A DNA stretch of 38,974 bases, taken from contig JBLHNW010000001.1 in assembly GCA_047622205.1 (NCBI GenBank), positions 1 through 38,974 of the forward strand, read 5' to 3'. This document shows positions 33-13,760 of this stretch, piece after piece (the stretch's first letter is position 1; each line of letters opens with the position of its first letter). A program made the position numbers and the translations under genes. Source of the stretch: Paraglaciecola sp. (GTDB lineage: Bacteria; Pseudomonadota; Gammaproteobacteria; Enterobacterales; Alteromonadaceae). The notes beneath the pieces were generated by a model. The model saw only the letters and a list, made by a program, of their open reading frames with translations, was not told where the DNA came from and ran no database searches.

Positions 33-1100
33 GTGATCACTACAATGCAAATGCAACCAACAAACATTGTGCAATTTATCTTTGTTTTTCAGATGATATT
101 CGGTGTCTTTCTCATTTGGAAAAATACTCGCTATCGTGGCTTGTGCTACTTATTAATACTTGCCGCTTGTTCGATGCTATTTAATTTAACTGAAGAGTTA
201 GCAAATACCAGAGAACTGCATCTTGTCACCCCTATTTTTCTGCTCGGCAAAGGGCCTTTGTTTTACCTGTTTGTTTATCAATTAATTTATCCCGAAAAGC
301 AAATAAACCAAAAGCGCTTCATTCATCTTTTTCCTATGTTAATTGCTTTGCCATTCACACATTGGCATCAACTGGTAATTGCGTCAGGCACCTTAAGTCA
401 GCTGGTTTATGCATATATGTCGATACGCTTAATTTTGGCATATCACAAAGCCTCTTTTTCAATGCGTTCTGACGCTGATTCATTGCAACTATTCTGGATA
501 GTGAACGTATTACTTGCCTCTCTCGTTGTTGGGGGATTCGATCTAATAAGGTTAAACCTGCAACCCTATATCTCCTATGAGTTAAATTTGGCAGGACAAT
601 TATTCGAAAACTCAGCTATTTTATTATTGTTTAGTTTTCTCATTTATAAAGCAGTACGACACCCTAAATTGTTTAACGGAATGACAGCTTTTGAACAATT
701 AGAGAAGCAAACTTGTGAAGCCCCTGACCGAAAAGATGAGGATATAAGTAAAACAATATTCGTAAGTCTGGAGCAATTAATTAAAGAAAAATTTTTACAT
801 CATAAACCCCGATTATCACTAACTGATCTAGCAACGGAGACAGGCCTAAATACCCGAGAAATATCACAGGCGATTAATCAAAGTGCCGATTGTAGTTTCT
901 GTGATTATATTAACAAATTGAGAGTTGAGGATTTAAAAGAAAAATTATTGAGTAATTCTAATAATAAAATTTCCGTACTTGATTTGGCTTTTGACGTTGG
1001 TTTTAACTCAAAATCCAGCTTCAATGCAATCTTTAAAAGGGAAACCGATACAACCCCAACGCAATTTATAAAACAGATTAGAAATAAAATAATCAATTAA
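33..1100 (+). CDS. Membrane-anchored AraC-family transcriptional regulator
   Basis: About 6 hydrophobic segments in the N-terminal 200 aa; C-terminal AraC HTH (LSLTDLA...ISQAIN...FCDYINKLRVE...LAFDVGFNSKSSFNAIFKRETDTTPTQF). True start could be ATG 45 or 51. Confidence 0.9.
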   Translation: MITTMQMQPTNIVQFIFVFQMIFGVFLIWKNTRYRGLCYLLILAACSMLFNLTEELANTRELHLVTPIFLLGKGPLFYLFVYQLIYPEKQINQKRFIHLFPMLIALPFTHWHQLVIASGTLSQLVYAYMSIRLILAYHKASFSMRSDADSLQLFWIVNVLLASLVVGGFDLIRLNLQPYISYELNLAGQLFENSAILLLFSFLIYKAVRHPKLFNGMTAFEQLEKQTCEAPDRKDEDISKTIFVSLEQLIKEKFLHHKPRLSLTDLATETGLNTREISQAINQSADCSFCDYINKLRVEDLKEKLLSNSNNKISVLDLAFDVGFNSKSSFNAIFKRETDTTPTQFIKQIRNKIIN

Positions 1101-1136
1101 AACAATTGAATAGAGTAATTCTATTTTCTTCTTAAA

Positions 1137-1184
1137 GTGCATTATCACGATCTGGGACGACTTATTCATTTCCCCGTGTACATT
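1137..1184 (+). promoter_or_regulatory. Putative AraC-activated promoter of the amidohydrolase gene
   Basis: GTGCATTATCACGATCTGGGACGAC (1137-1161), then 17 nt, then the -10-like TACATT (1179-1184). No canonical -35; lies directly downstream of the AraC gene. Confidence 0.4.
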
Positions 1185-1215
1185 GTCGTTAATTCAATTA
1201 CACACAAGAATAAAC

Positions 1216-2661
1216 ATGCGAAACCTACTCTTTAATAAGCAAACAAAGTATCTGTTACTAACTATCGGTATCACGATATTGCTAATACTAGCATTAACCG
1301 CGGTCTCTATTTTTTCGTTAAATTATATTCAACCGACAGGGTTAATGCCTGTCGACAATAAACAAGCACTTGTTATTGATAACGTAAATATCGTTATGGT
1401 CAAAACAAATAAGGTGCTCAAAAATCGCCAAGTGGTTATTAACAAAGGAATAATAACCGCGATCAACGGCGCCAGGTCCCCTGCGCAAGATAATGCCCGC
1501 ATTATTGATGGTAATGGAGCGTACGTTACGCCTGGCTTGTTTGACATGCATGTGCATTTGTATGACCGAAAATATCTGATGCTTAATCTTGCATACGGTG
1601 TGACGAGCGTGCGCAATTTAAACGGAAAAAGGATGCATTTGCGATGGAGAGAGGAGCTGCAAAATGAACAATGGCTAGGTAGCAACTTATATCTGAGTTC
1701 TCCTATTTTAGCCGGAAAAGACACTCACGCTCTAAATCAAAAAATACCATCACCCCAAGAAGGTAGAGAGCAGGTTAGAAAAGCAAAAGAGAATGGCTAT
1801 GATTTGGTAAAAGTGTATGGCTATTTAGAGAGCGAAATCTTTGAAGCGATTATTGATGAAGCCAGAAAACTTGATATTGCCGTAGCAAAGCATGGACCTC
1901 ATTCTCCAAAAGGCTCTGATTGGGAATACTTGGAGGGCTTGCAATCATTAGAGCATGTTGAAGACATCTTTCAAGGCCCATTAAATTATCAATTTGACTA
2001 TGAAAAGTTACAAACTATTGCGCTACAACTCAAAGCGTTGAATGTGCCGATTGTTCCCACGTTAGAAACTTTCAAGCACTTAACTCAGCTAAGTAATGGT
2101 AAACAAACCTTCATTAACAGTTTGGACCTAGACTTTTTAAATCCCCTCCATTTGGATATTGAAAGCGAGTTTAGCGTTGCCCGTTGGTTGCAAGATGAAA
2201 AACAACAAAGTGATTACCATTCAAAAGAGTTGAAATTTCTGTTCGAAATAGTGAATGTCCTCAATGACCATAAGATAAAACTATTGGTAGGCTCTGATGC
2301 GGGGACAATGTACACCATACCGGGAGTTGCTACGCATAATGAAATGTATTTGTTGAAACAATCTGGATTATCTGATTTTGGAGTACTTAAAGCGGCTACC
2401 ATCAATGCCGCACAGGCACTGAAAATAGACAGCCAGTATGGCAGTGTCGAGATAGGAAAAACAGCCGATTTGGTCCTCGTCACTCAAAACCCCCTTGAGG
2501 ATATTCAAGCACTTAGAAATCCTGCAGCGGTGATCAAAAATGGTCAATGGATAGATGAAAAAGCACTAGCGAAACTTAAAATCGAAGCTAAGAACACCGA
2601 TGGTTACTTTTGGAGTGTTATCAACTTGCTAGAAGATTTATTAACGAGGGCTATCTTTTAA
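1216..2661 (+). CDS. Membrane-anchored/secreted amidohydrolase-family metallohydrolase
   Basis: PGLFDMHVH metal motif, LAYGVTSVR, AKH, SLEHVED, VGSDAG, AATINAA, GSVEIGKTADLVLV; N-terminal TM helix. ATG 1216 preferred over TTG 1183, which overlaps the putative -10. Confidence 0.88.
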   Translation: MRNLLFNKQTKYLLLTIGITILLILALTAVSIFSLNYIQPTGLMPVDNKQALVIDNVNIVMVKTNKVLKNRQVVINKGIITAINGARSPAQDNARIIDGNGAYVTPGLFDMHVHLYDRKYLMLNLAYGVTSVRNLNGKRMHLRWREELQNEQWLGSNLYLSSPILAGKDTHALNQKIPSPQEGREQVRKAKENGYDLVKVYGYLESEIFEAIIDEARKLDIAVAKHGPHSPKGSDWEYLEGLQSLEHVEDIFQGPLNYQFDYEKLQTIALQLKALNVPIVPTLETFKHLTQLSNGKQTFINSLDLDFLNPLHLDIESEFSVARWLQDEKQQSDYHSKELKFLFEIVNVLNDHKIKLLVGSDAGTMYTIPGVATHNEMYLLKQSGLSDFGVLKAATINAAQALKIDSQYGSVEIGKTADLVLVTQNPLEDIQALRNPAAVIKNGQWIDEKALAKLKIEAKNTDGYFWSVINLLEDLLTRAIF

Positions 2662-4880: not shown

Positions 4881-5669
4881 ATGGACATCAATCTTTCCGG
4901 CAAAAGAGCACTCGTTTGCGGCAGTAGTCAAGGAATTGGCCGAGCTTGCGCCATTGAGTTGGCCCAGCTTGGGGCAAGTATTACTTTGTTTTCTCGAAAC
5001 CACACAAGCCTCGAATCGGTTAAAGCTGAACTAGATACAACAAGCGGACAATTACACCATGTCTTGACGGCAGATTTTTCCAAGCCAGAACAAGTTAAAG
5101 CTGCTGTCAATGGTCATATTTCAGAAACGGGAGGCTTTGATATTCTAATTAATAATACCGGTGGTCCCGCACCTGGACCTGCTAGTACTGCCGACAGTCA
5201 GGCTTTTATCGATGCGTTTAACCTTCATTTGGTCTCCAATCACCACTTGGTACAGGCATTGATCCCGGCAATGAAAGCAAATCAGTATGGTAGAATAATT
5301 AATGTTATTTCTACCTCGGTCAAACAACCTCTACCTGGCTTAGGCGTGTCTAACACTATTCGCGGTGCGGTCGCCAGTTGGGCAAAAACCTTGGCGTATG
5401 AACTTGGGCCTTTTGGGATAACGGTCAATAATGTTCTACCGGGTGCAACCGCTACCGGTCGACTCGACGCAATTATCGCCAATAAAGCGAAAAAGCAGTC
5501 CATTTCAATAGAGCAGGCAACGGAAAATGAAAAGGCGCAGATCCCAATGCGGCGTTTCGCAAAGCCTGAGGAGTTTGCCGCAGCTACCGCATTTTTGGCT
5601 TCCCCGTCAGCAGGCTACATTACAGGGATAAACCTACCTGTAGATGGCGGCAGAACGGGAAGTTTGTAG
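4881..5669 (+). CDS. Atypical SDR oxidoreductase (no catalytic YxxxK)
   Basis: Rossmann CGSSQGIG, NNTGGP, GRIINVIS, SNTIR in place of YxxxK, ITVNNVLPG, YITG...VDGG. Confidence 0.9.
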   Translation: MDINLSGKRALVCGSSQGIGRACAIELAQLGASITLFSRNHTSLESVKAELDTTSGQLHHVLTADFSKPEQVKAAVNGHISETGGFDILINNTGGPAPGPASTADSQAFIDAFNLHLVSNHHLVQALIPAMKANQYGRIINVISTSVKQPLPGLGVSNTIRGAVASWAKTLAYELGPFGITVNNVLPGATATGRLDAIIANKAKKQSISIEQATENEKAQIPMRRFAKPEEFAAATAFLASPSAGYITGINLPVDGGRTGSL

Positions 5670-5672
5670 ATT

Positions 5673-7121
5673 ATGGCTATGGATATATTAGCTAATTTTA
5701 TCGATGGTCAATATTGCCCACCAGTAAATGGGCAATATATTGATAATATAGAGCCAGCAACAGGGCTTATTTATGGCAAAGTCCCTAATAGTGATGTAAC
5801 CGATGTCGCTTTGGCAGTAAAAGCGGCAGAACTGGCCCTTCCTGCTTGGAAGGCAATGCCATCAGAGCAACGTGCAGATTATCTGTACGCCATTGCCAAA
5901 GGTATTGAGGCGCGACTTGCTGAATTGGCCATTGCCGAATCCACTGACAATGGTAAGCCGGTTTCGCTGGCAACGAATGTGGATATTCCAAGGGCGGCCA
6001 GTAATTTCAAATTTTTTGCTCATGCCTGCTCGCAATTTGCCAGTGAATCACACAATATGGCAAACACAGCAGTTAATTATACGCTGCGCCAACCACTGGG
6101 AATCGTCGCTTGTATTTCGCCGTGGAATTTACCTCTATATTTGTTCACCTGGAAGATTGCCCCCGCACTTGCTGCCGGAAATTGTGTCATTGCCAAGCCC
6201 TCAGAGATAACCCCAAAAACCGCAGCAATGTTAGGTGAAATTTGTCTCGAAGCGGGTTTGCCTCCAGGAGTATTAAACATAATTCATGGCACCGGCATTA
6301 GTGCAGGACAGGCTTTATGTAATCACGAAAAGGTCAAAGCAGTGTCATTTACCGGTGGCACAGCTACCGGCGCTGCTATTGCCAGTCAACTTGCACCGAA
6401 GTTCAAGAAATTATCCCTGGAATTAGGTGGTAAGAACCCTGCTTTAGTCTTCGCCGACTGTGACTTTGAGCAAACAGTGGATGAAGTTTTCAAGGCAAGT
6501 TTTGCCAATCAGGGGCAAATTTGTTTATGTGCATCTAGGCTTTATATTGAACGCCCCATTTACGAGAAATTCAAACAGGCTTTGATAACCAGAGCCAATC
6601 AGCTGCAGCCCGGTGATCCACAATTAGCACAAACACAAATGGGCGCGATTGTGTCTAAAGCGCATATGGAAAAGGTTAAGCAGTTCATAGATCTTGCTCG
6701 TAAAGAGGGAGGGACCGTGTTGGCGGGTGGAGAACAAGTTAATCTACCAGGACGTTGCCAGAACGGCTATTTTTTGCAAGCCACAATTGTTGAAGGCTTA
6801 GCCAATACAGCAAGTTGCAATCAACAGGAGATTTTTGGACCGATGATTACATTGCAAGCATTCGACACTGATGAAGAAGCGTTATTTTTGGCCAATGAAA
6901 GTCAATATGGATTGGCATCGACAGTCTGGACCTCCAATCTTGGCAGAGCACATCGTTTATCTGAAAACTTAAATACGGGTATAGTTTGGATAAACTGTTG
7001 GCTATTGCGGGATTTGCGTACCCCTTTTGGTGGCATGAGTCATTCTGGGGTCGGTCGTGAAGGTGGTGAAGAGGCTATGCGATTCTTTACTGAGCCTAAA
7101 AATGTCTGTGTAAAATATTAA
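5673..7121 (+). CDS. 2-aminomuconate 6-semialdehyde dehydrogenase (ALDH8A1-like)
   Basis: ISPWNLPLYLFTWKIAPAL, SFTGGT, LELGGKNP, catalytic FANQGQICLC, EIFGP, WINCWLLRDLRTPFGG; context next to ACMSD. Confidence 0.85.
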   Translation: MAMDILANFIDGQYCPPVNGQYIDNIEPATGLIYGKVPNSDVTDVALAVKAAELALPAWKAMPSEQRADYLYAIAKGIEARLAELAIAESTDNGKPVSLATNVDIPRAASNFKFFAHACSQFASESHNMANTAVNYTLRQPLGIVACISPWNLPLYLFTWKIAPALAAGNCVIAKPSEITPKTAAMLGEICLEAGLPPGVLNIIHGTGISAGQALCNHEKVKAVSFTGGTATGAAIASQLAPKFKKLSLELGGKNPALVFADCDFEQTVDEVFKASFANQGQICLCASRLYIERPIYEKFKQALITRANQLQPGDPQLAQTQMGAIVSKAHMEKVKQFIDLARKEGGTVLAGGEQVNLPGRCQNGYFLQATIVEGLANTASCNQQEIFGPMITLQAFDTDEEALFLANESQYGLASTVWTSNLGRAHRLSENLNTGIVWINCWLLRDLRTPFGGMSHSGVGREGGEEAMRFFTEPKNVCVKY

Positions 7122-7400
7122 CTTAAAGAAATAATATAAAAAACATGAGCTTAATCTGTCATAAATTTAAATCATCAGGTGCAATATTTGCTGGTCCTTT
7201 GGGCTGTAAATGGGTACTGAACTAAGCTTTCACATCCTGTGTTCCCTGCTATTCTAGAGGAGGGACACACCTGCCTATTCTGCTGAGAATCAGATTAGTT
7301 TATAGGTAAATATACGGGTCTTTTGCACACAACATTCGAATCCTTTCTTTACAGGTGTTGCAAAATAATTCAATCGTTCAATTGATGTCAGGAACAACAA

Positions 7401-7835
7401 ATGAGCAAGCAAGAAAATACATTTAATACGGATAACGCACCCTTACCAGTAGGCTTATATCCTCACGCCCGTCAGGTGGGAAACCTACTCTTTTTGTCAG
7501 GTGTTGGCCCCAGAAAAGCAGGCACTAAACAGATCCCAGGTGTGGAGTTAGATGACGACGGCAAGATCATCTCTTACGACATCGAAGCGCAGTGCCACTC
7601 GGTATTTCAAAACGTTCGAGCCATTCTTGAAGCATCAAATGCAAGTTGGATGGATTTAATTGATGTCACCGTTTTCCTTACCAACATGGACGACGATTTC
7701 GTTATCTATAATCGTGTTTATGCAGAATATTTTGCTGACAACCAACCTTGCCGGACAACAGTTGAAATCAACAAACTCCCAACCCCAATTGCTATCGAAC
7801 TGAAGTGTATCGCCGCACTCAAGCCAAACAGCTAA
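7401..7835 (+). CDS. RidA/YjgF-family protein, probable 2-aminomuconate deaminase
   Basis: PVGLYPHAR, LFLSGVGP, VTVFLTNM, PCRTTV (catalytic Arg), IELKC; cluster context; AGGA RBS. Confidence 0.85.
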   Translation: MSKQENTFNTDNAPLPVGLYPHARQVGNLLFLSGVGPRKAGTKQIPGVELDDDGKIISYDIEAQCHSVFQNVRAILEASNASWMDLIDVTVFLTNMDDDFVIYNRVYAEYFADNQPCRTTVEINKLPTPIAIELKCIAALKPNS

Positions 7836-7846
7836 AGGAGTGACTC

Positions 7847-8362
7847 ATGTCAACATTTGCTTTACCTTTTAATTTACAAGCTTGGATTGAAGAACATCGG
7901 GAAAGATTAAAACCCCCGGTGTGTAACAAACAGATATTTGAACAAGATGATTACATCGTCATGGTGGTGGGTGGACCGAATAACCGCACGGATTACCACT
8001 ATAACGAAACACCCGAGTTGTTTTATCAGTTGGAAGGGGAAATGGTGCTTAAAGTCATCGATAACGGTGAATTCAAAGACATTCCAATCAAAGCTGGAGA
8101 GATATTTATGCTCCCGGGCAAAGTTTTGCACTCACCGCAACGCATGCCAGACAGCATAGGAATGGTAGTGGAGCAGAAGCGTCTGCCAGGACAGGAAGAT
8201 GCCTTATTGTGGTTCTGCCCAGCTTGCCAGCACCCCTTGTATAAAGAGCAGTTCACCTTGGAAAATATTGAAACCGATTTGCCTGTTGTGTTTAAAAATT
8301 TCTACGATAACCCTGACAATTGTACCTGCTCGCGATGCGGTACTATTACCAGCAAAGGGTAA
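7847..8362 (+). CDS. nbaC: 3-hydroxyanthranilate 3,4-dioxygenase
   Basis: [37 protein letters not shown], rubredoxin-like CPAC...CSRC; AAGGAG RBS. Confidence 0.96.
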
Positions 8363-8369
8363 ATGACGC

Positions 8370-9380
8370 ATGTTAAAAATAGATATTCATACCCATATTC
8401 TTCCCAAGACCTGGCCTAACTTGCGGGAAAAATACGGTTATGGCGGCTTCGTTAGCCTTGAACATACAGGGTGTGGTTGTGCCAGAATGATGATGGATGA
8501 CAAATTCTTCCGGGAAATTGAAGAAAACTGTTGGGATCCAAGTGCTCGCTTACATGACTGCAAACAACACAAGGTTGATGTACAGGTCTTATCCACGGTT
8601 CCTGTCATGTTTAGTTATTGGGCAAAACCAGCACATGCTCTGGATTTGTCGATGCTGCTAAATGACCACATAGCTGGAATTGTTAATGATCATCCGAAAC
8701 GATTTGTCGGCCTGGGTACTATCCCTATGCAATCCCCAGATTTGGCAATAAAAGAACTGGAACGTTGCGTCAAGGATATTGGTCTGGCGGGAGTACAGAT
8801 CGGGTCGCACATTAATGATATGAACCTCGACCACGAGCAGCTTTTTCCCATTTTCGAAGCGGCACAAGATTTGGGTGCTGCCGTTTTTGTTCATCCCTGG
8901 GACATGATGGCTAAAGAAAAAATGCCTAAATACTGGTTGCCTTGGTTAGTCGGTATGCCAGCTGAATCCAGCCTCGCCATATGTTCGATGATTTTTGGCG
9001 GTGTGTTACAACGACTGCCGAAACTGAAAGTCGCGTTCGCCCATGGGGGCGGCTCCTTTCCTGCAACCATTGGTCGTATAGAGCACGGCTTTAATGTGCG
9101 ACCGGATCTCTGTGCCGTAGATTGTGATATCAACCCTAGGGAATTTTTGTCACGGATATACCTCGACTCACTGGTTCATGACAAACTGGCACTGAATTAT
9201 CTGATTGATTTAATGGGAGCTGACCGAATAGCTCTTGGCACTGACTATCCTTTCCCTCTAGGCGAACTTGAACCCGGCAAGCTGATAGAATCTGTGGGAT
9301 ATCCCTCAGAAATCCAAAATCAATTATTACACGGAACGGCACTGGATTGGTTGGGACTGAAAAAGGAACAGTTTCTGTAA
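8370..9380 (+). CDS. nbaD: 2-amino-3-carboxymuconate-6-semialdehyde decarboxylase (ACMSD)
   Basis: [68 protein letters not shown]. Confidence 0.93.
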
Positions 9381-10231
9381 TGGTCACCGTCGAACTTGCC
9401 AATGGGACCTATCAAGTCAATATAGTTTTTCCACATTCGATTGCCATTGAAATGGCATTTAACAAGGATCAACCAAACCATTTTGGTGCCGATCTAGCAA
9501 CGGCGACACCGATGCAATCGGGTGGTTTTATTGGAGATACTGAACAAGGTGGCAGTTGCAATGTGAATCAGTTAATTCTGAACCCTCATTGTAACGGAAC
9601 CCATACCGAAACTCTGGCGCATATATGCGATGCCAGTGGTGTTTTGTCACTAAGCATAGCGGACATTGAAATTGCTCCCCTGGTGCCCTGTATGTTGATC
9701 TCAGTCTCTCCTGAACATGGCATGTCGAGTGACGAGTCGTATCGCCCTGATTTGACCGACAGAGATGAAGTTGTCACCCGGAAACAACTTGAAAAAGTAC
9801 TTAGAGATATCGATGACTGTCAGTTAACAAGCCTGGTAATTAGAACGCTTCCAAATGATTTGGGAAAATGTACACGGGTATACAATGAAATGCAGCAACC
9901 TGCGTTTTTAAGCCGGGATGCGGTGTTATATCTGAATGAAAGAGGTGTTGAGCACCTGTTGCTCGATTTACCTTCTATTGACCGACTCCATGATGAAGGG
10001 CTAATGACCTGCCATCATCTGTTTTGGCAGGTGCCCGAAGGCAGCCATCAGGCGGGCCAACACAGCCTGATTAACAAAACCATCACCGAAATGGCTTATA
10101 TTAATAAACAAATTGTCGATGGATTTTATTTTCTCAATCTACAAATGCCCGCTTTCATAAATGATGCTGCGCCTAGTCGTCCAGTGCTCTACTCAGCACA
10201 ACGTGTCAATGAGCAACCTTTAAAAACTTAG
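9380..10231 (+). CDS. kynB: Cyclase-family metallohydrolase, probable kynurenine formamidase
   Basis: NPHCNGTHTE metal motif, LVIRTLPN, HLLLDLPSIDR, ITEM, DAAPSRP; ATG overlaps the ACMSD stop (TAATG). Function inferred from context. Confidence 0.75.
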   Translation: MVTVELANGTYQVNIVFPHSIAIEMAFNKDQPNHFGADLATATPMQSGGFIGDTEQGGSCNVNQLILNPHCNGTHTETLAHICDASGVLSLSIADIEIAPLVPCMLISVSPEHGMSSDESYRPDLTDRDEVVTRKQLEKVLRDIDDCQLTSLVIRTLPNDLGKCTRVYNEMQQPAFLSRDAVLYLNERGVEHLLLDLPSIDRLHDEGLMTCHHLFWQVPEGSHQAGQHSLINKTITEMAYINKQIVDGFYFLNLQMPAFINDAAPSRPVLYSAQRVNEQPLKT

Positions 10232-10237
10232 CAAAAG

Positions 10238-11545
10238 ATGGAAACTATGAATTTTGATACTTCCCTACAATACGCGCAAAAACTGGATGCTACAGATCCT
10301 TTAGCGTCAATGCGCGAACACTTTTCAATTCCCAAACAAGCCAATGGTGAAGACGAATACTATTTCACCGGTAATTCATTGGGCCTGCAACCAAGGTTAG
10401 CCAGAGAAGCGGTAATTGAGTTGTTGGATGCCTGGCAACTGCGCGGCGTCAAAGGCCACTTTGAAGGAGAATACCCGTGGATGCCTTACCATGAATTTGT
10501 CTCTGAACAGGCGGCAAATCTGGTAGGAGCTAAACCAGAAGAAGTGGTAATGATGAATTCTTTGACGACAAATCTGCATCTGATGATGGTGAGTTTTTAC
10601 CAGCCAAAAGGAAAACGCAGTAAAATTCTGATTGAAGATCATGCGTTTCCGTCGGATCACTATGCTGTTGAGTCGCAGTTGAAACATCACAATCAATCTG
10701 TTGAAGACAACTTGTTGTTATGGACGCCTCGCAGCGGTGAAGAACTGCTTAATTATGACGACTTGTTCGACATGATCGAACAACAGGGTGATGAGATAGC
10801 CTTGATCCTGCTACCTGGGGTTCAGTATTACACGGGTCAGGTTTTGGACATGCAGCGCATAACCCAACAGGCTCACGCAAAAGGGATCATCGTCGGCTTT
10901 GATCTGGCTCATGCTGCGGGCAATGTGGAACTTGCCTTACATGACTGGCAGGTAGATTTTGCCTGCTGGTGTAGTTACAAGTACCTGAATAGTGGTGCGG
11001 GATCTGTGGCAGGCTGTTTTGTCCATCAAAGACACACCCAAAACCCAGAGTTAAATCGCTTCGCCGGTTGGTGGGGACACGACAAATCCACGCGTTTTAA
11101 AATGGAGAATAACTTTAAGCCTATTCCCACTGCCGAAGGTTGGCAGCTATCCAACCCACCGGTTTTGTCGTTAGCTGCAGTGCGGGGTTCATATGACACC
11201 ATTCGTCACGCAGGCGGAATCAGTGCTTTACGTAAAAAATCGCTGTTGTTAACCCAGTATTTAATGGATCTGATAAAGGCCGAATTGGGAGAAAGGATCA
11301 GAGTGATAACACCTGAAGATCCCGCCCAACGTGGCTGCCAGTTATCTCTTATGGTGAACGAACCTGGACTGAACGGTAAAGCTCTGTACGATGATCTTGA
11401 ATCACAGGGTATAACTACAGATTGGCGCGAACCTAATGTTATCAGGGTTGCCCCCGTTCCTTTGTACAACCAATTTCAGGATGCTTATCATTTTGTCAGA
11501 ATTCTGAAGACTTGCTTAAATAAGGAAGCCAATCATGTCAGTTAA
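10238..11545 (+). CDS. kynU: Kynureninase (3-hydroxykynureninase type)
   Basis: YFTGNSLGLQP, MNSLTTNLH, AFPSDHYA, FDLAHAAGN, PLP-Lys WCSYKYLN, GWWGH, WQLSNPP, RVAPVPLYN. Confidence 0.96.
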   Translation: METMNFDTSLQYAQKLDATDPLASMREHFSIPKQANGEDEYYFTGNSLGLQPRLAREAVIELLDAWQLRGVKGHFEGEYPWMPYHEFVSEQAANLVGAKPEEVVMMNSLTTNLHLMMVSFYQPKGKRSKILIEDHAFPSDHYAVESQLKHHNQSVEDNLLLWTPRSGEELLNYDDLFDMIEQQGDEIALILLPGVQYYTGQVLDMQRITQQAHAKGIIVGFDLAHAAGNVELALHDWQVDFACWCSYKYLNSGAGSVAGCFVHQRHTQNPELNRFAGWWGHDKSTRFKMENNFKPIPTAEGWQLSNPPVLSLAAVRGSYDTIRHAGGISALRKKSLLLTQYLMDLIKAELGERIRVITPEDPAQRGCQLSLMVNEPGLNGKALYDDLESQGITTDWREPNVIRVAPVPLYNQFQDAYHFVRILKTCLNKEANHVS

Positions 11546-12902
11546 TCAAAAACCTGCAACGATCACTCTAGCAGGAGGAGGCCTTGTTGGCTCGCTGCTG
11601 TCACTAATACTGGCGAAAAAAGGCTATCAGGTAGAGGTGTTTGAATCTCGCCCAGATATGCGAAGAGTCGACATTTCGGCAGGGCGTTCGATAAATTTGG
11701 CTTTGGCTAACCGCGGTATCAAACCCCTTGAAGAACTGGGCTTGATGCCCAAAATCAATGAAATGCTCATTCCTATGGTTGGCCGCATGGTTCATGTGGA
11801 GGGTGAGCCCGCTAAGTTACAGCCTTACGGCCAGCAAAAGCACGAAGTGATTTATTCCATTCCCCGTGGCCAACTCAACAGTTTTTTACTAACAGAGGCT
11901 GAAAAAACTGGTCTGGTTAACATTAATTTTGACACTAAAATTACCGCTGTTGATCTCAATACGAATCAACTAATGGTAACCCACCGCGATCAGACTAAGA
12001 CAGTAACGTTTAGTAAAATTATTGGCACTGATGGCGCTAATTCTGTGTTGCGTGATGCCGTTCTGGGCGGCAATAAAGACCAACAACTCAGTGTTGACGT
12101 CCTTGATCACAGCTACAAAGAATTACACATTTCTCCTGGTAAGCAGGGACAACATAAAATTGAAAAAAACGCCCTGCATATCTGGCCAAGGGGCAACTTC
12201 ATGCTCATTGCTCTGCCTAATCTCGACGGCAGTTTTACCGTTACTTTGTTTATGCACAGCAAAGGGGAAAATAGTTTCGCAACAGTTAATGATGATGCTT
12301 CAATTAATGCATTTTTTGACCAGTACTTCGCCAATATCAAACCCGATCTAGAAAACCTGGTAGGCTCTTATACAGCTAATCCAACAGGTCGTCTGGCAAC
12401 GATAAAATGTGCTCCCTGGAATTATGCCGACAAAGGGCTGATTATTGGTGATGCGGCTCACGCCATTGTTCCGTTCCATGGACAAGGCATGAATTGTGGG
12501 TTTGAAGATTGCCAGTCGATTGCGGAGTTGGTCCCAGATGCAAAACATGCAGAAACTGCGAATTGGCAGAAAATATTTGCCGATATTGCAAATCTGCGTA
12601 AACCCAACGCGGATGCCATAGCCGATATGGCACTTGAAAACTATATTGAAATGCGCGACAGCGTCATCCAACCCTCTTTCCTGAAGAAAAAAGCCTTCGC
12701 TTTTAAACTCCAGCAATTGTTTCCAGAACGATTTACTCCTCGATATGGGATGGTAATGTTTGAACATCGCCCCTATCACGAGGCGTTTGAGCTTGGGAAA
12801 ATACATGAGCAGTTGTTACAAGAACTCAGTGATTCACATGCATCGATTGAGGAACTGTCGCAACAAACGGCTGATACACTATTAAGCAAGTATGGATTAT
12901 AG
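11535..12902 (+). CDS. kmo: Kynurenine 3-monooxygenase
   Basis: GGGLVG, AGRSINLALANRG, GTDGANS, HSYKEL, LHIWPRG, IALPNLDGSFTVTLF, GDAAHAIVPFHGQGMNCGFED, NYIEMRD. Confidence 0.95.
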   Translation: MSVNQKPATITLAGGGLVGSLLSLILAKKGYQVEVFESRPDMRRVDISAGRSINLALANRGIKPLEELGLMPKINEMLIPMVGRMVHVEGEPAKLQPYGQQKHEVIYSIPRGQLNSFLLTEAEKTGLVNINFDTKITAVDLNTNQLMVTHRDQTKTVTFSKIIGTDGANSVLRDAVLGGNKDQQLSVDVLDHSYKELHISPGKQGQHKIEKNALHIWPRGNFMLIALPNLDGSFTVTLFMHSKGENSFATVNDDASINAFFDQYFANIKPDLENLVGSYTANPTGRLATIKCAPWNYADKGLIIGDAAHAIVPFHGQGMNCGFEDCQSIAELVPDAKHAETANWQKIFADIANLRKPNADAIADMALENYIEMRDSVIQPSFLKKKAFAFKLQQLFPERFTPRYGMVMFEHRPYHEAFELGKIHEQLLQELSDSHASIEELSQQTADTLLSKYGL

Positions 12903-12911
12903 GAGCGAAAC

Positions 12912-13760
12912 ATGTCTGATAAAAAAGCAGAAAATTACCGCAATATTGAAAAAGCTATCCATACCGATTTCAAACAAGATATGTCGTATGCAGATTACCT
13001 ACAATTAGATAAAGTGCTGTCCGCCCAGACACCACAATCTGGCCAACACGACGAAATGTTATTCATAATTATCCATCAAAGCAGTGAGTTGTGGCTTAAA
13101 CTTGCGGTACACGAAGTGAGCAGGGCACTGTCATGTATCCAACAGGAGGATTTTGGACCGGCGTTTAAAGTTATCTCCCGGGTTAAGCATATATTTATAC
13201 AACTTACGCAATCTTGGCAGATCCTTTCTACTCTGACGCCAAGTGATTATCTGAAATTTCGCGATGACCTTGGACACTCATCAGGTTTTCAATCTCATAG
13301 TTATCGCAAACTCGAATTTTTACTAGGTAACAAAAATGCCAACATGCTAAAAGTGCACGCTCATGATGCTGCCGTTTTTAAAGATCTCAGCGACACCCTA
13401 AATCAAAAGAGCATATACGATGAGGCCATTCACTTGTTAGCTAAACAGGGTTTTAACATCGACAACGAAGTGCTAAACCGTGATGTTACGCAACCCTACC
13501 AGGCTAATAAATCGGTACTAGAAGCATGGGTCACTGTGTATAAAGAATGCGATAAATACTTTGAGTTGTATGAATTAGCAGAGAAATTAGTCGATATCGA
13601 AGACGCATTTCAACAATGGCGTTTCAAACATATGTACACCGTGCAACGGATCATAGGCAATAAACAAGGTACTGGCGGCTCTTCTGGTGTTGGGTTTCTC
13701 AAAAAAGCCTTAGAAATGAGCTTTTTCCCTGAACTGTTTGACGTCAGAACGCATTTATAA
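12912..13760 (+). CDS. kynA: Tryptophan 2,3-dioxygenase
   Basis: YADYLQLD, HDEMLFIIIHQSSELW, SSGFQS, WRFKH, GTGGSSG, FFPELF; AGGAG RBS. Confidence 0.96.
   Translation: MSDKKAENYRNIEKAIHTDFKQDMSYADYLQLDKVLSAQTPQSGQHDEMLFIIIHQSSELWLKLAVHEVSRALSCIQQEDFGPAFKVISRVKHIFIQLTQSWQILSTLTPSDYLKFRDDLGHSSGFQSHSYRKLEFLLGNKNANMLKVHAHDAAVFKDLSDTLNQKSIYDEAIHLLAKQGFNIDNEVLNRDVTQPYQANKSVLEAWVTVYKECDKYFELYELAEKLVDIEDAFQQWRFKHMYTVQRIIGNKQGTGGSSGVGFLKKALEMSFFPELFDVRTHL

Follow-up and report, generated by a model that had tools for sequence, protein, structure and literature searches.

A tyrosine-less short-chain dehydrogenase/reductase as a candidate for a reductive exit from the bacterial kynurenine pathway

Background and summary

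This study concerns the first gene of a kynurenine cluster in a 38,974-nucleotide stretch of DNA from Paraglaciecola sp. (GCA_047622205.1, contig JBLHNW010000001.1, positions 1 to 38,974), called the window below. The gene encodes an SDR (short-chain dehydrogenase/reductase) that lacks the catalytic tyrosine. Judged by its sequence and that of its relatives, this SDR is real, conserved and misannotated, and a strong candidate for a reductive exit from the bacterial kynurenine pathway. It is probably an NADPH-dependent ene-reductase that turns 2-oxohex-3-enedioate into 2-oxoadipate, as sequence, a structure model and analogy suggest, and it would then replace the decarboxylase-hydratase-aldolase route. 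That it acts at this node of the pathway, whatever its exact substrate, is very likely.

Eight genes follow the SDR, all on the + strand: an aldehyde dehydrogenase (ALDH), RidA, 3-hydroxyanthranilate 3,4-dioxygenase (HAO), aminocarboxymuconate semialdehyde decarboxylase (ACMSD), KynB, KynU, kynurenine 3-monooxygenase (KMO) and tryptophan 2,3-dioxygenase (TDO). Pathway schemes have long led the carbon of tryptophan through 2-oxoadipate. The meta-cleavage exit consists of a decarboxylase, a hydratase and an aldolase.

A wider claim is narrowly favoured on balance. It is that a reductive kynurenine exit, not described so far, is widespread in bacteria, and that Tyr-less SDRs of the His/Ser/Arg type are the 'oxalocrotonate reductase' that textbooks show without a gene. 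This would be the majority route in Bacteroidota and marine Gammaproteobacteria, and it would operate in trans with three ACMSD families that can stand in for one another, including one (26% identical) that had not been recognised before.

Distribution of the SDR

The family sample consists of 200 genomes of the same family, each at least 90% complete; an absence in these profiles means not found with the queries used. Orthologues of the SDR are present in 46 of the 200 genomes at 63-82% identity, and the next matches reach at most 38%. Every one of the 46 carriers has exactly one ACMSD-like class (20 type 1, 20 type 2 and 6 class 3), and the SDR is found in 0 of the 140 genomes without such a class. 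The co-occurrence proposed as a check in an earlier sequence-only reading of the window is thus seen in all family carriers, and also in 21 of 25 Bacteroidota carriers.

Type-1 ACMSD (74-88%) occurs in 20 family genomes, all of them SDR carriers. The SDR heads a contiguous operon in 18 of these, and the other two operons are split at contig ends. A second ACMSD class (~40%) is present in 36 further genomes, 34 of them kynurenine-type; the remaining two (G181 and G198) are other amidohydrolases and were dropped. Of these type-2 genes, 33 sit in ALDH-RidA-HAO-ACMSD clusters and one is on a 4.5-kb contig.

In 20 of the 34 type-2 genomes the SDR is present at another locus, intact, free of stops and with all 11 diagnostic residues. 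For 19 of these relocated SDRs the surrounding 6 kb or so contain no kynurenine gene; the remaining one lies at the end of a contig. DmpH/DmpE-like genes are missing from all 20 genomes, and their operons are without a DmpH-like gene. The 14 type-2 genomes without the SDR look different: 13 have two DmpH/DmpE-like genes, with at least one inside the operon locus. For the operon-located gene the DmpH model gives the best score, one that stays under the cut-off. In five SDR-less genomes a DmpH-like gene lies between ACMSD and kynU (two) or is fused to kynU (three).

The fusions come from three genomes of one genus. A 4-oxalocrotonate-decarboxylase-like domain is joined N-terminally to kynureninase, giving proteins of 682-689 amino acids:

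L112:7439-9487, L114:7335-9389, L116:7315-9384; strand: -; decarboxylase-kynureninase fusions (domain matches)

Six SDR carriers have the type-1 operon minus its ACMSD. A third amidohydrolase is found, as a stand-alone gene, in all six and in 0 of the 194 other genomes. Its identity is 50-54% to the gene that fills the ACMSD slot in one Bacteroidota kynurenine cluster:

L139:6724-7809 (G257); strand: -; class-3 ACMSD-like amidohydrolase (after HAO; 13 of 13 PDB matches are ACMSDs)

Identity of class 3 to the ACMSD of the window is 26-27%. It is also present in L125-L128, L130, G075, G285, G339, G309 and G317, and on sequence grounds it is likely an unrecognised ACMSD family.

Taken over the 60 ACMSD-bearing family genomes, 45 have only the SDR, 13 only the decarboxylase/hydratase pair, one both and one neither. 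This is the anti-correlation with dmpH/dmpE-type genes that had been suggested as a test. The 45 SDR-only genomes have no TIGR03218-like match. The genome with both (G199) has only a hydratase-dmpF-dmpG set, beside another ALDH. The genome with neither (G037, in 580 contigs) was confirmed with a profile. One genus, g54, holds both states.

The pN/pS ratio is 0.25 for relocated and 0.16 for operon copies of the SDR; these values are ungapped, uncorrected and near saturation, and are taken to show only that the copies are intact and conserved.

Two further observations concern the operons themselves. Their two types (L224-L237 and L082-L101) never occur together in any of the 200 genomes. In Colwellia-like type-1 operons the KMO has only ~40% identity, as in type 2, a similarity which suggests chimeric operons.

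The second sample is centred on Bacteroidota and holds 150 genomes around a Chitinophagaceae genome, the centre excluded. The SDR (at least 51%) is in 25 of these, and 21 of the 25 have an ACMSD class, versus 5 of 125 non-carriers. No DmpH-like match is found in the 21 ACMSD-bearing carriers. Two of the five ACMSD-bearing non-carriers (G251 and G309) have two each, and in G251 the DmpH-like gene lies 2 kb from ACMSD.

The third sample, of 300 Pseudomonadota genomes, has ACMSD matches in eight. Five of these have the SDR with His116 and no DmpH-like match; one (G607) has no SDR and two DmpH-like genes within 12 kb of ACMSD; two were dropped as 34-36% amidohydrolases without kynurenine neighbours. 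Pooled over the three samples there are 92 genomes with a kynurenine-type ACMSD: 71 are SDR-only, 16 decarboxylase-only, one has both, and four have neither (G037, G314, G317, and G319, which has a divergent SDR without His116).

At the level of loci, a kynurenine gene is present within the fetched flank in 22 of 55 SDR loci at 53% identity or more, and in 0 of 12 distant ones. The linked loci span Alteromonadales, Microbulbifer, Endozoicomonas, Chitinophagaceae, Saprospiraceae, and metagenome-assembled genomes (MAGs) of an Acidobacteria and an Azospirillum. In five Colwelliaceae loci the SDR is kept and the whole rest of the operon is cleanly gone.

The gene and its protein

4881..5669; strand: +; Tyr-less SDR (His116/Ser157/Arg161/Arg258 clade), predicted NADPH-dependent 2-oxohex-3-enedioate reductase (motif, Pfam, orthologue alignment, fold)

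This open reading frame (ORF) of 262 amino acids opens the cluster. Its stop ends at 5669 and the ATG of the ALDH is at 5673, which leaves the 3-nt gap described earlier. The protein belongs to the SDR superfamily by its TGxxxGxG-like Rossmann motif (CGSSQGIG), by Pfam matches above cut-off to adh_short_C2 (PF13561, 2.6e-46) and adh_short (PF00106), and by the TM scores of 0.85-0.94 of its model to SDRs. None of the best 25 of the 220 matched NCBIfam models reaches its cut-off.

The two features that first drew attention to this gene are as had been read from the letters: S157-N-T-I-R161 occupies the YxxxK position, and an arginine (F-S-R39-N) follows beta-2. The alignment behind the following statements has 43 orthologous sequences of 54-100% identity, one frameshifted row having been dropped. 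All 43 have S157-N-T-x-R161 where classical SDRs and FabG have the catalytic YxxxK. The classical catalytic tetrad also includes an Asn, placed in the helix that follows the NxG loop. Here the sequence is F113-N-L-H116, with His116 invariant, and many rows of non-orthologous SDRs have Asn at the position aligned with it. Invariant in this alignment are R39, H116, S144, K148, P150, S157, N158, R161, T190, T192, R194 and R258.

FabG was considered as an identity and rejected, given the absence of YxxxK and scores under the FabG equivalog cut-offs (132.8 against 297.75 for TIGR01830, 167.5 against 222 for NF009466). The database name '3-oxoacyl-ACP reductase' on relatives of the SDR is over-annotation, going by these motifs and scores. 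The idea that the Tyr-less motif alone proves a special function was likewise dropped: S-N-x-x-R is common to paralogues at 34-47% identity that have no kynurenine genes nearby. His116 is present in every SDR examined at 49% identity or more and in none at 47% or less. By this comparison of sequences His116, not S-N-x-x-R, marks the pathway SDR.

The closest named relatives are a protein from a Paraglaciecola MAG (91%) and one from Aliiglaciecola litoralis (90%), whose locus has the identical nine-gene order. In a quick tree, from which neither dates nor donors were drawn, the 78 rows at 47% or more fall together (support 93, not starred). The ESM Atlas returns only generic SDR clusters, all or mostly bacterial. 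Two orthologues carry frameshifts (L059:10001-10778 and L060:10001-10787); other genes of L059 are also broken, and the frameshifts are probably assembly errors.

Fold and characterised relatives

The AlphaFold model of the SDR has a pLDDT of 92.4. Foldseek ranks NADPH-bound AerF of Microcystis aeruginosa first (TM 0.94) and YwfH, also called BacG, of Bacillus subtilis eleventh (TM 0.92, rmsd 1.7). Uncharacterised Burkholderia NADP(H) SDRs rank between these two, and all of them stand above FabG.

AerF (PDB 6jh7, 6jha and 6jhb) resembles the SDR in fold and profile (E 6e-61). It also has no catalytic Tyr, a Ser in its place, K-x-P after beta-5 and Arg after beta-2. Its entries show NADPH and are titled alkenal double-bond reductase; 6jhb also holds 4-hydroxyphenylpyruvate, a 2-oxo acid. 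AerF differs, at 33% identity, in having Lys for His116, S-G-V-V-N for S-N-T-I-R and no equivalent of Arg258. Its context is biosynthetic, that of the Choi moiety of aeruginosin, and its substrate is cyclic.

YwfH/BacG (PDB 3u49, 3u4c and 3u4d; E 1.7e-39) is likewise Tyr-less and NADPH-dependent. Its differences, at 34% identity, are Lys for His116, an N-S-M-M-N motif and a role in bacilysin biosynthesis. The BacG reaction is a conjugate hydride addition to a 2-oxo-3-enoate. The enzyme reduces an unsaturated 2-oxo acid, H2HPP to H4HPP; in PMC9147277 BacG makes epoxy-4S-H4HPP from epoxy-3E-H2HPP.

K148-x-P150 of the SDR is common to AerF and YwfH, both without the Tyr, and an Arg at the R39 position is also seen in the alignments with 6jh7, 3u49 and 5va8. 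The SDR shares with this pair the missing Tyr, the closest fold and the basic residue after beta-2. It does not share their Lys116 or the Asn that closes their xxxxN motif, having His116 and Arg161 instead. By analogy the SDR would work like AerF and YwfH, but it is the orthologue of neither, and its predicted cofactor is NADPH.

The best PDB matches by sequence (E 2e-50 to 3e-42) are Burkholderia 5va8, 5vps and 5idx and Aeropyrum APE0912 (2z1n), whose titles name no function. Like the SDR they have S-N-x-x-R and a GGP loop, and their structures contain NADP(H). Unlike it, at 34-37% identity, they have Met (Burkholderia) or Leu (APE0912) at position 116 and no Arg258 in the aligned part. APE0912 is presumably a member of the CDD group BKR_like_SDR_like.

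Proposed reaction and alternatives

The RidA-type deaminase of the cluster would yield 2-oxohex-3-enedioate, the keto form of 4-oxalocrotonate. This compound contains a 2-oxo-3-enoate group, as does the BacG substrate. Since there is no Tyr for carbonyl activation, conjugate addition to the 2-oxo-3-enoate is favoured. NADPH would then deliver its hydride to C4. More speculatively, K148, R161, R194 and R258 may bind both carboxylates as well as the cofactor, and the enolate may take its proton from His116 or a water. The product, 2-oxoadipate, could continue via HglS to D-2-hydroxyglutarate in some genomes and to glutaryl-CoA in others. Cofactor, substrate and regiochemistry are all predictions from sequence and from the related enzymes. 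The sequence-only reading had proposed a C=C reductase for the deaminated ring-cleavage product, and this finds partial support: co-occurrence, anti-correlation and the kinship to AerF and YwfH all point that way.

A different order of events, with 2-aminomuconate (or the imine tautomer of this compound) as the substrate of the SDR ahead of deamination, is unlikely. Hydrolysis would then lead to 2-oxoadipate, or the product would be an unsaturated amino acid like that of human ASPDH, and RidA would, with the same low probability, be an imine hydrolase acting afterwards or in parallel. The same co-occurrence data fit it, and the SDR often adjoins the 2-aminomuconate semialdehyde dehydrogenase (AMSDH) while the other genes are elsewhere (L024, L056, L188 and L189). 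There is also a precedent, the NAD(P)H-dependent reduction of 2-aminomuconate shown in a preprint for aspartate dehydrogenase, ASPDH (bioRxiv 10.64898/2026.06.05.730449). Against this order, the RidA/deaminase gene is kept in SDR-bearing operons just as in decarboxylase-type ones, what the SDR replaces is the decarboxylase (a step after deamination) and not RidA, and the substrates of AerF and YwfH are keto acids.

That the SDR forms a hydroxy acid (2-hydroxyhex-3-enedioate, for instance) by reducing the C2 carbonyl or the 2-hydroxymuconate dienol, with a different and longer route to central metabolism behind it, is very improbable. Carbonyl reductases make up most of the SDRs, this active site departs from that of AerF and YwfH at His116 and Arg161, and the ASPDH work offers a precedent, with hydride going to C2 and a shift of the double bond. 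The Tyr/Lys pair of ordinary carbonyl reduction is nevertheless absent in 43 of 43 orthologues, and no further unassigned gene recurs in the conserved operons.

Finally, the SDR might have some other substrate, in scavenging or housekeeping, and accompany kynurenine genes by history. This too is improbable, if somewhat less remote. Many of the copies in Bacteroidota lie apart from kynurenine genes, neither HAO nor ACMSD is matched in four of the 25 carriers there, Tyr-less paralogues with S-N-x-x-R are often met outside any kynurenine context, and the samples are phylogenetically clumped. Speaking for the kynurenine pathway are several facts. Every occurrence of the SDR in the family goes with an ACMSD class (46 of 46, and 0 of 140 others), the gene stays intact after operon loss where another ACMSD operon exists, and in three separate samples genomes with the decarboxylase pair lack it. 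If it were discounted, 45 family genomes would be left with no way of leaving 2-oxohex-3-enedioate that can be recognised. Within the family, the notion of orphan SDRs unrelated to the pathway was largely rejected, with 26 of 26 carriers that lack type 1 having a type-2 or class-3 ACMSD.

A number of results weigh against the ene-reductase assignment. Chief among them are four Bacteroidota carriers (G221, G341, G211 and G265, the last a single contig) without ACMSD, HAO or a close AMSDH match. In these, tryptophan could not be the source of the named substrate, and the orphan objection still stands for them. An alternative entry to 2-aminomuconate is unsupported there, with no close AMSDH match. 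Two further Bacteroidota genomes have an ACMSD and neither route, namely G314 and G317, the latter also without an AMSDH match. The earlier expectation that orthologues are linked to kynurenine genes holds for the 22 close loci already mentioned and fails for the other 33 of 55, where the fetched flank, often on a short contig, has none. The 46 carriers fall in 17 genera and the 13 decarboxylase genomes in five, and kin are not independent; because the genomes are related, Fisher P values overstate the association. The 47% SDR of G319 lacks His116, so that this residue may be dispensable. The SDR shares only 33-34% of its residues with AerF and YwfH, which have Lys for its His116 and S-x-x-x-N for its S-x-x-x-R, and ASPDH is a precedent for a reductase at this point giving an unexpected product. 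HglS does not discriminate either, being found in 12 of 14 SDR-less ACMSD-bearing genomes as well.

In L141 and L143 (G341 and G265) kynU comes directly after the SDR, in genomes without an HAO or ACMSD match. This looks like a remnant of the Chitinophagaceae cluster that is whole in L050 and L059.

The cluster in the window

The genes downstream of the SDR are listed here.

5673..7121; strand: +; 2-aminomuconate semialdehyde dehydrogenase, AMSDH-type ALDH (best PDB matches 7bzv, 4u3w and 4i1w, E 9e-138 to 1e-133)
7401..7835; strand: +; RidA-family, likely 2-aminomuconate deaminase (PF01042; conserved operon position)
7847..8362; strand: +; 3-hydroxyanthranilate 3,4-dioxygenase HAO (TIGR03037 and PRK13264 above cut-off)
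8370..9380; strand: +; ACMSD type 1, aminocarboxymuconate semialdehyde decarboxylase (PF04909, Amidohydro_2; position after HAO)
9347..10231; strand: +; cyclase-family kynurenine formamidase, KynB-like (PF04199, weak TIGR03035, position)
10238..11545; strand: +; kynureninase KynU (TIGR01814 above cut-off)
11535..12902; strand: +; putative kynurenine 3-monooxygenase, KMO-like (PF01494, FAD_binding_3; position)
12912..13760; strand: +; tryptophan 2,3-dioxygenase TDO (TIGR03036 above cut-off)

By these assignments the nine-gene cluster covers every step from tryptophan to 2-oxohex-3-enedioate. The mapping of all other cluster genes to steps from Trp to 2-aminomuconate/4-oxalocrotonate, on which the sequence-only reading built, agrees with PDB, NCBIfam, Pfam and position for the eight genes. 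For the ALDH, TIGR03216 is the best NCBIfam model, with a score below cut-off. The second-best PDB match of the RidA-family protein is the 2-aminomuconate deaminase 6izh (4e-24). The best NCBIfam model for the KMO-like gene is VioC, also below cut-off. The true start of the KynB-like gene is probably the GTG or ATG just past the ACMSD stop. Meta-cleavage lower-pathway genes had been reported missing from the window, and indeed the 39 window ORFs scanned include no FAA-hydrolase and no DmpG.

The sole long gap in the cluster is a 279-nt AT-rich spacer between ALDH and RidA (7122-7400), and relatives have similar gaps. Promoter and terminator scans are at chance level (21 versus 18.2, and 9 versus 10.5). 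Upstream, at 33-2661 (+), lie a membrane-anchored AraC regulator and then a 492-amino-acid amidohydrolase, a pair that related loci, as far as examined, do not keep next to the SDR. The SDR is in 0 of 7 genomes of the same genus, and the cluster is thus patchy in this lineage.

Exit and sinks in the source genome

The source assembly is 79.6% complete, in 400 contigs. Meta-cleavage genes elsewhere in the genome would speak against a reductive exit. Within this 79.6% none were found: there is no TIGR03217 aldolase above cut-off and no TIGR03218 match. The sole FAA-hydrolase match adjoins a maiA-like GST gene, and this neighbour suggests a place in the tyrosine pathway. A stand-alone gene of the 4-oxalocrotonate tautomerase family, below cut-off, is at L005:1498-1713 (+) on contig C118, unlinked to the kynurenine cluster and divergent from a TPR/winged-helix regulator.

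Glutaryl-CoA metabolism had been named as the sink for 2-oxoadipate, and this part fares unevenly. None of the eight acyl-CoA dehydrogenase matches in the assembly is like glutaryl-CoA dehydrogenase (GCDH) by a PDB-verified query, whose best match is a 36% isovaleryl-CoA-dehydrogenase-like gene; an HglS-like gene is present instead. On the other side, GCDH (53-57%) is present in five of five SDR-bearing relatives tested. GCDH next to the cluster in three Chitinophagaceae-type loci was set aside as weak, as it follows a pyrF-like gene and may belong to a housekeeping block.

The HglS-like gene is a DUF1338 gene of contig C20 that lies directly upstream of two others, one saccharopine-dehydrogenase-like and one an ALDH:

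C20:8087-11719 (L073); strand: -; DUF1338/HglS-like, saccharopine-dehydrogenase-like and ALDH run (gene order, PDB matches)

This run is a probable lysine-catabolic cluster converging on 2-oxoadipate. The DUF1338 gene matches 3lho (8e-60) and hydroxyglutarate synthase 6w1k (1e-26), and the aligned His, Arg, His and Glu are kept. A passage in PMC7286885 gives the HglS reaction as 2-oxoadipate to D-2-hydroxyglutarate. A sink for 2-oxoadipate is therefore present, and not necessarily the glutaryl-CoA one. As a marker of the SDR route HglS was rejected: it is near-universal in the family (56 of 58 genomes tested), yet found in 1 of 22 Bacteroidota tested.

Relation to known routes

No assignment of this SDR, and no gene forming 2-oxoadipate at this step, was found in the literature searched, by title and start of abstract, with most subscription journals outside the search. 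Sections of PMC7842363 propose the reduction to 2-oxoadipate without a gene, and mention a syntenic Aspergillus SDR. A figure in a 2026 review still lists 'oxalocrotonate reductase' (PMC12899273).

If the assignment is true, the SDR would be the first gene for the reaction to 2-oxoadipate at this step, and bacteria would have a second, apparently commoner, lower kynurenine route. The FabG misannotation of many relatives would be corrected, and a linear diacid ene-reductase would be added to the AerF/YwfH chemistry. The substrate is obtainable from 3-hydroxyanthranilate by a published enzyme cascade. The finding identifies no human gene.

The claim that the gene for the mammalian reduction step is not firmly assigned needs correcting in part. 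According to the ASPDH preprint, the animal 2-aminomuconate reductase is ASPDH, and the human enzyme gives a different product, 2-aminohex-3-enedioate, with no ammonia released (bioRxiv 10.64898/2026.06.05.730449). The same text also identifies a fungal deaminase, still implies further steps to 2-ketoadipate, and has no mention of an SDR in its main text. Its introduction gives 2-oxohex-3-enedioate as the product of the bacterial 2-aminomuconate deaminase.

What ASPDH has in common with the SDR as proposed is the NAD(P)H-dependent reduction of a C6 intermediate where the kynurenine pathway ends. ASPDH differs in belonging to the aspartate-dehydrogenase family, in acting on 2-aminomuconate and in its product. 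The SDR has no homology to ASPDH, matching only SDR-type Pfam domains and structures. With ASPDH assigned in animals, the SDR would be a bacterial solution and not the homologue of the human gene.

The closest known pathway is the meta-cleavage-type one of Burkholderia cenocepacia, reportedly due to Colabroy and Begley in 2005, as the preprint has it. As far as the preprint's account goes, it runs like the window through HAO, ACMSD, AMSDH and a deaminase to 2-oxohex-3-enedioate. From there the two part: exit genes of the Burkholderia cenocepacia type were not found here, and in the sampled genomes they are near-exclusive with the SDR. The SDR route would be a variant of a known pathway, with AerF/YwfH-like chemistry at its end.

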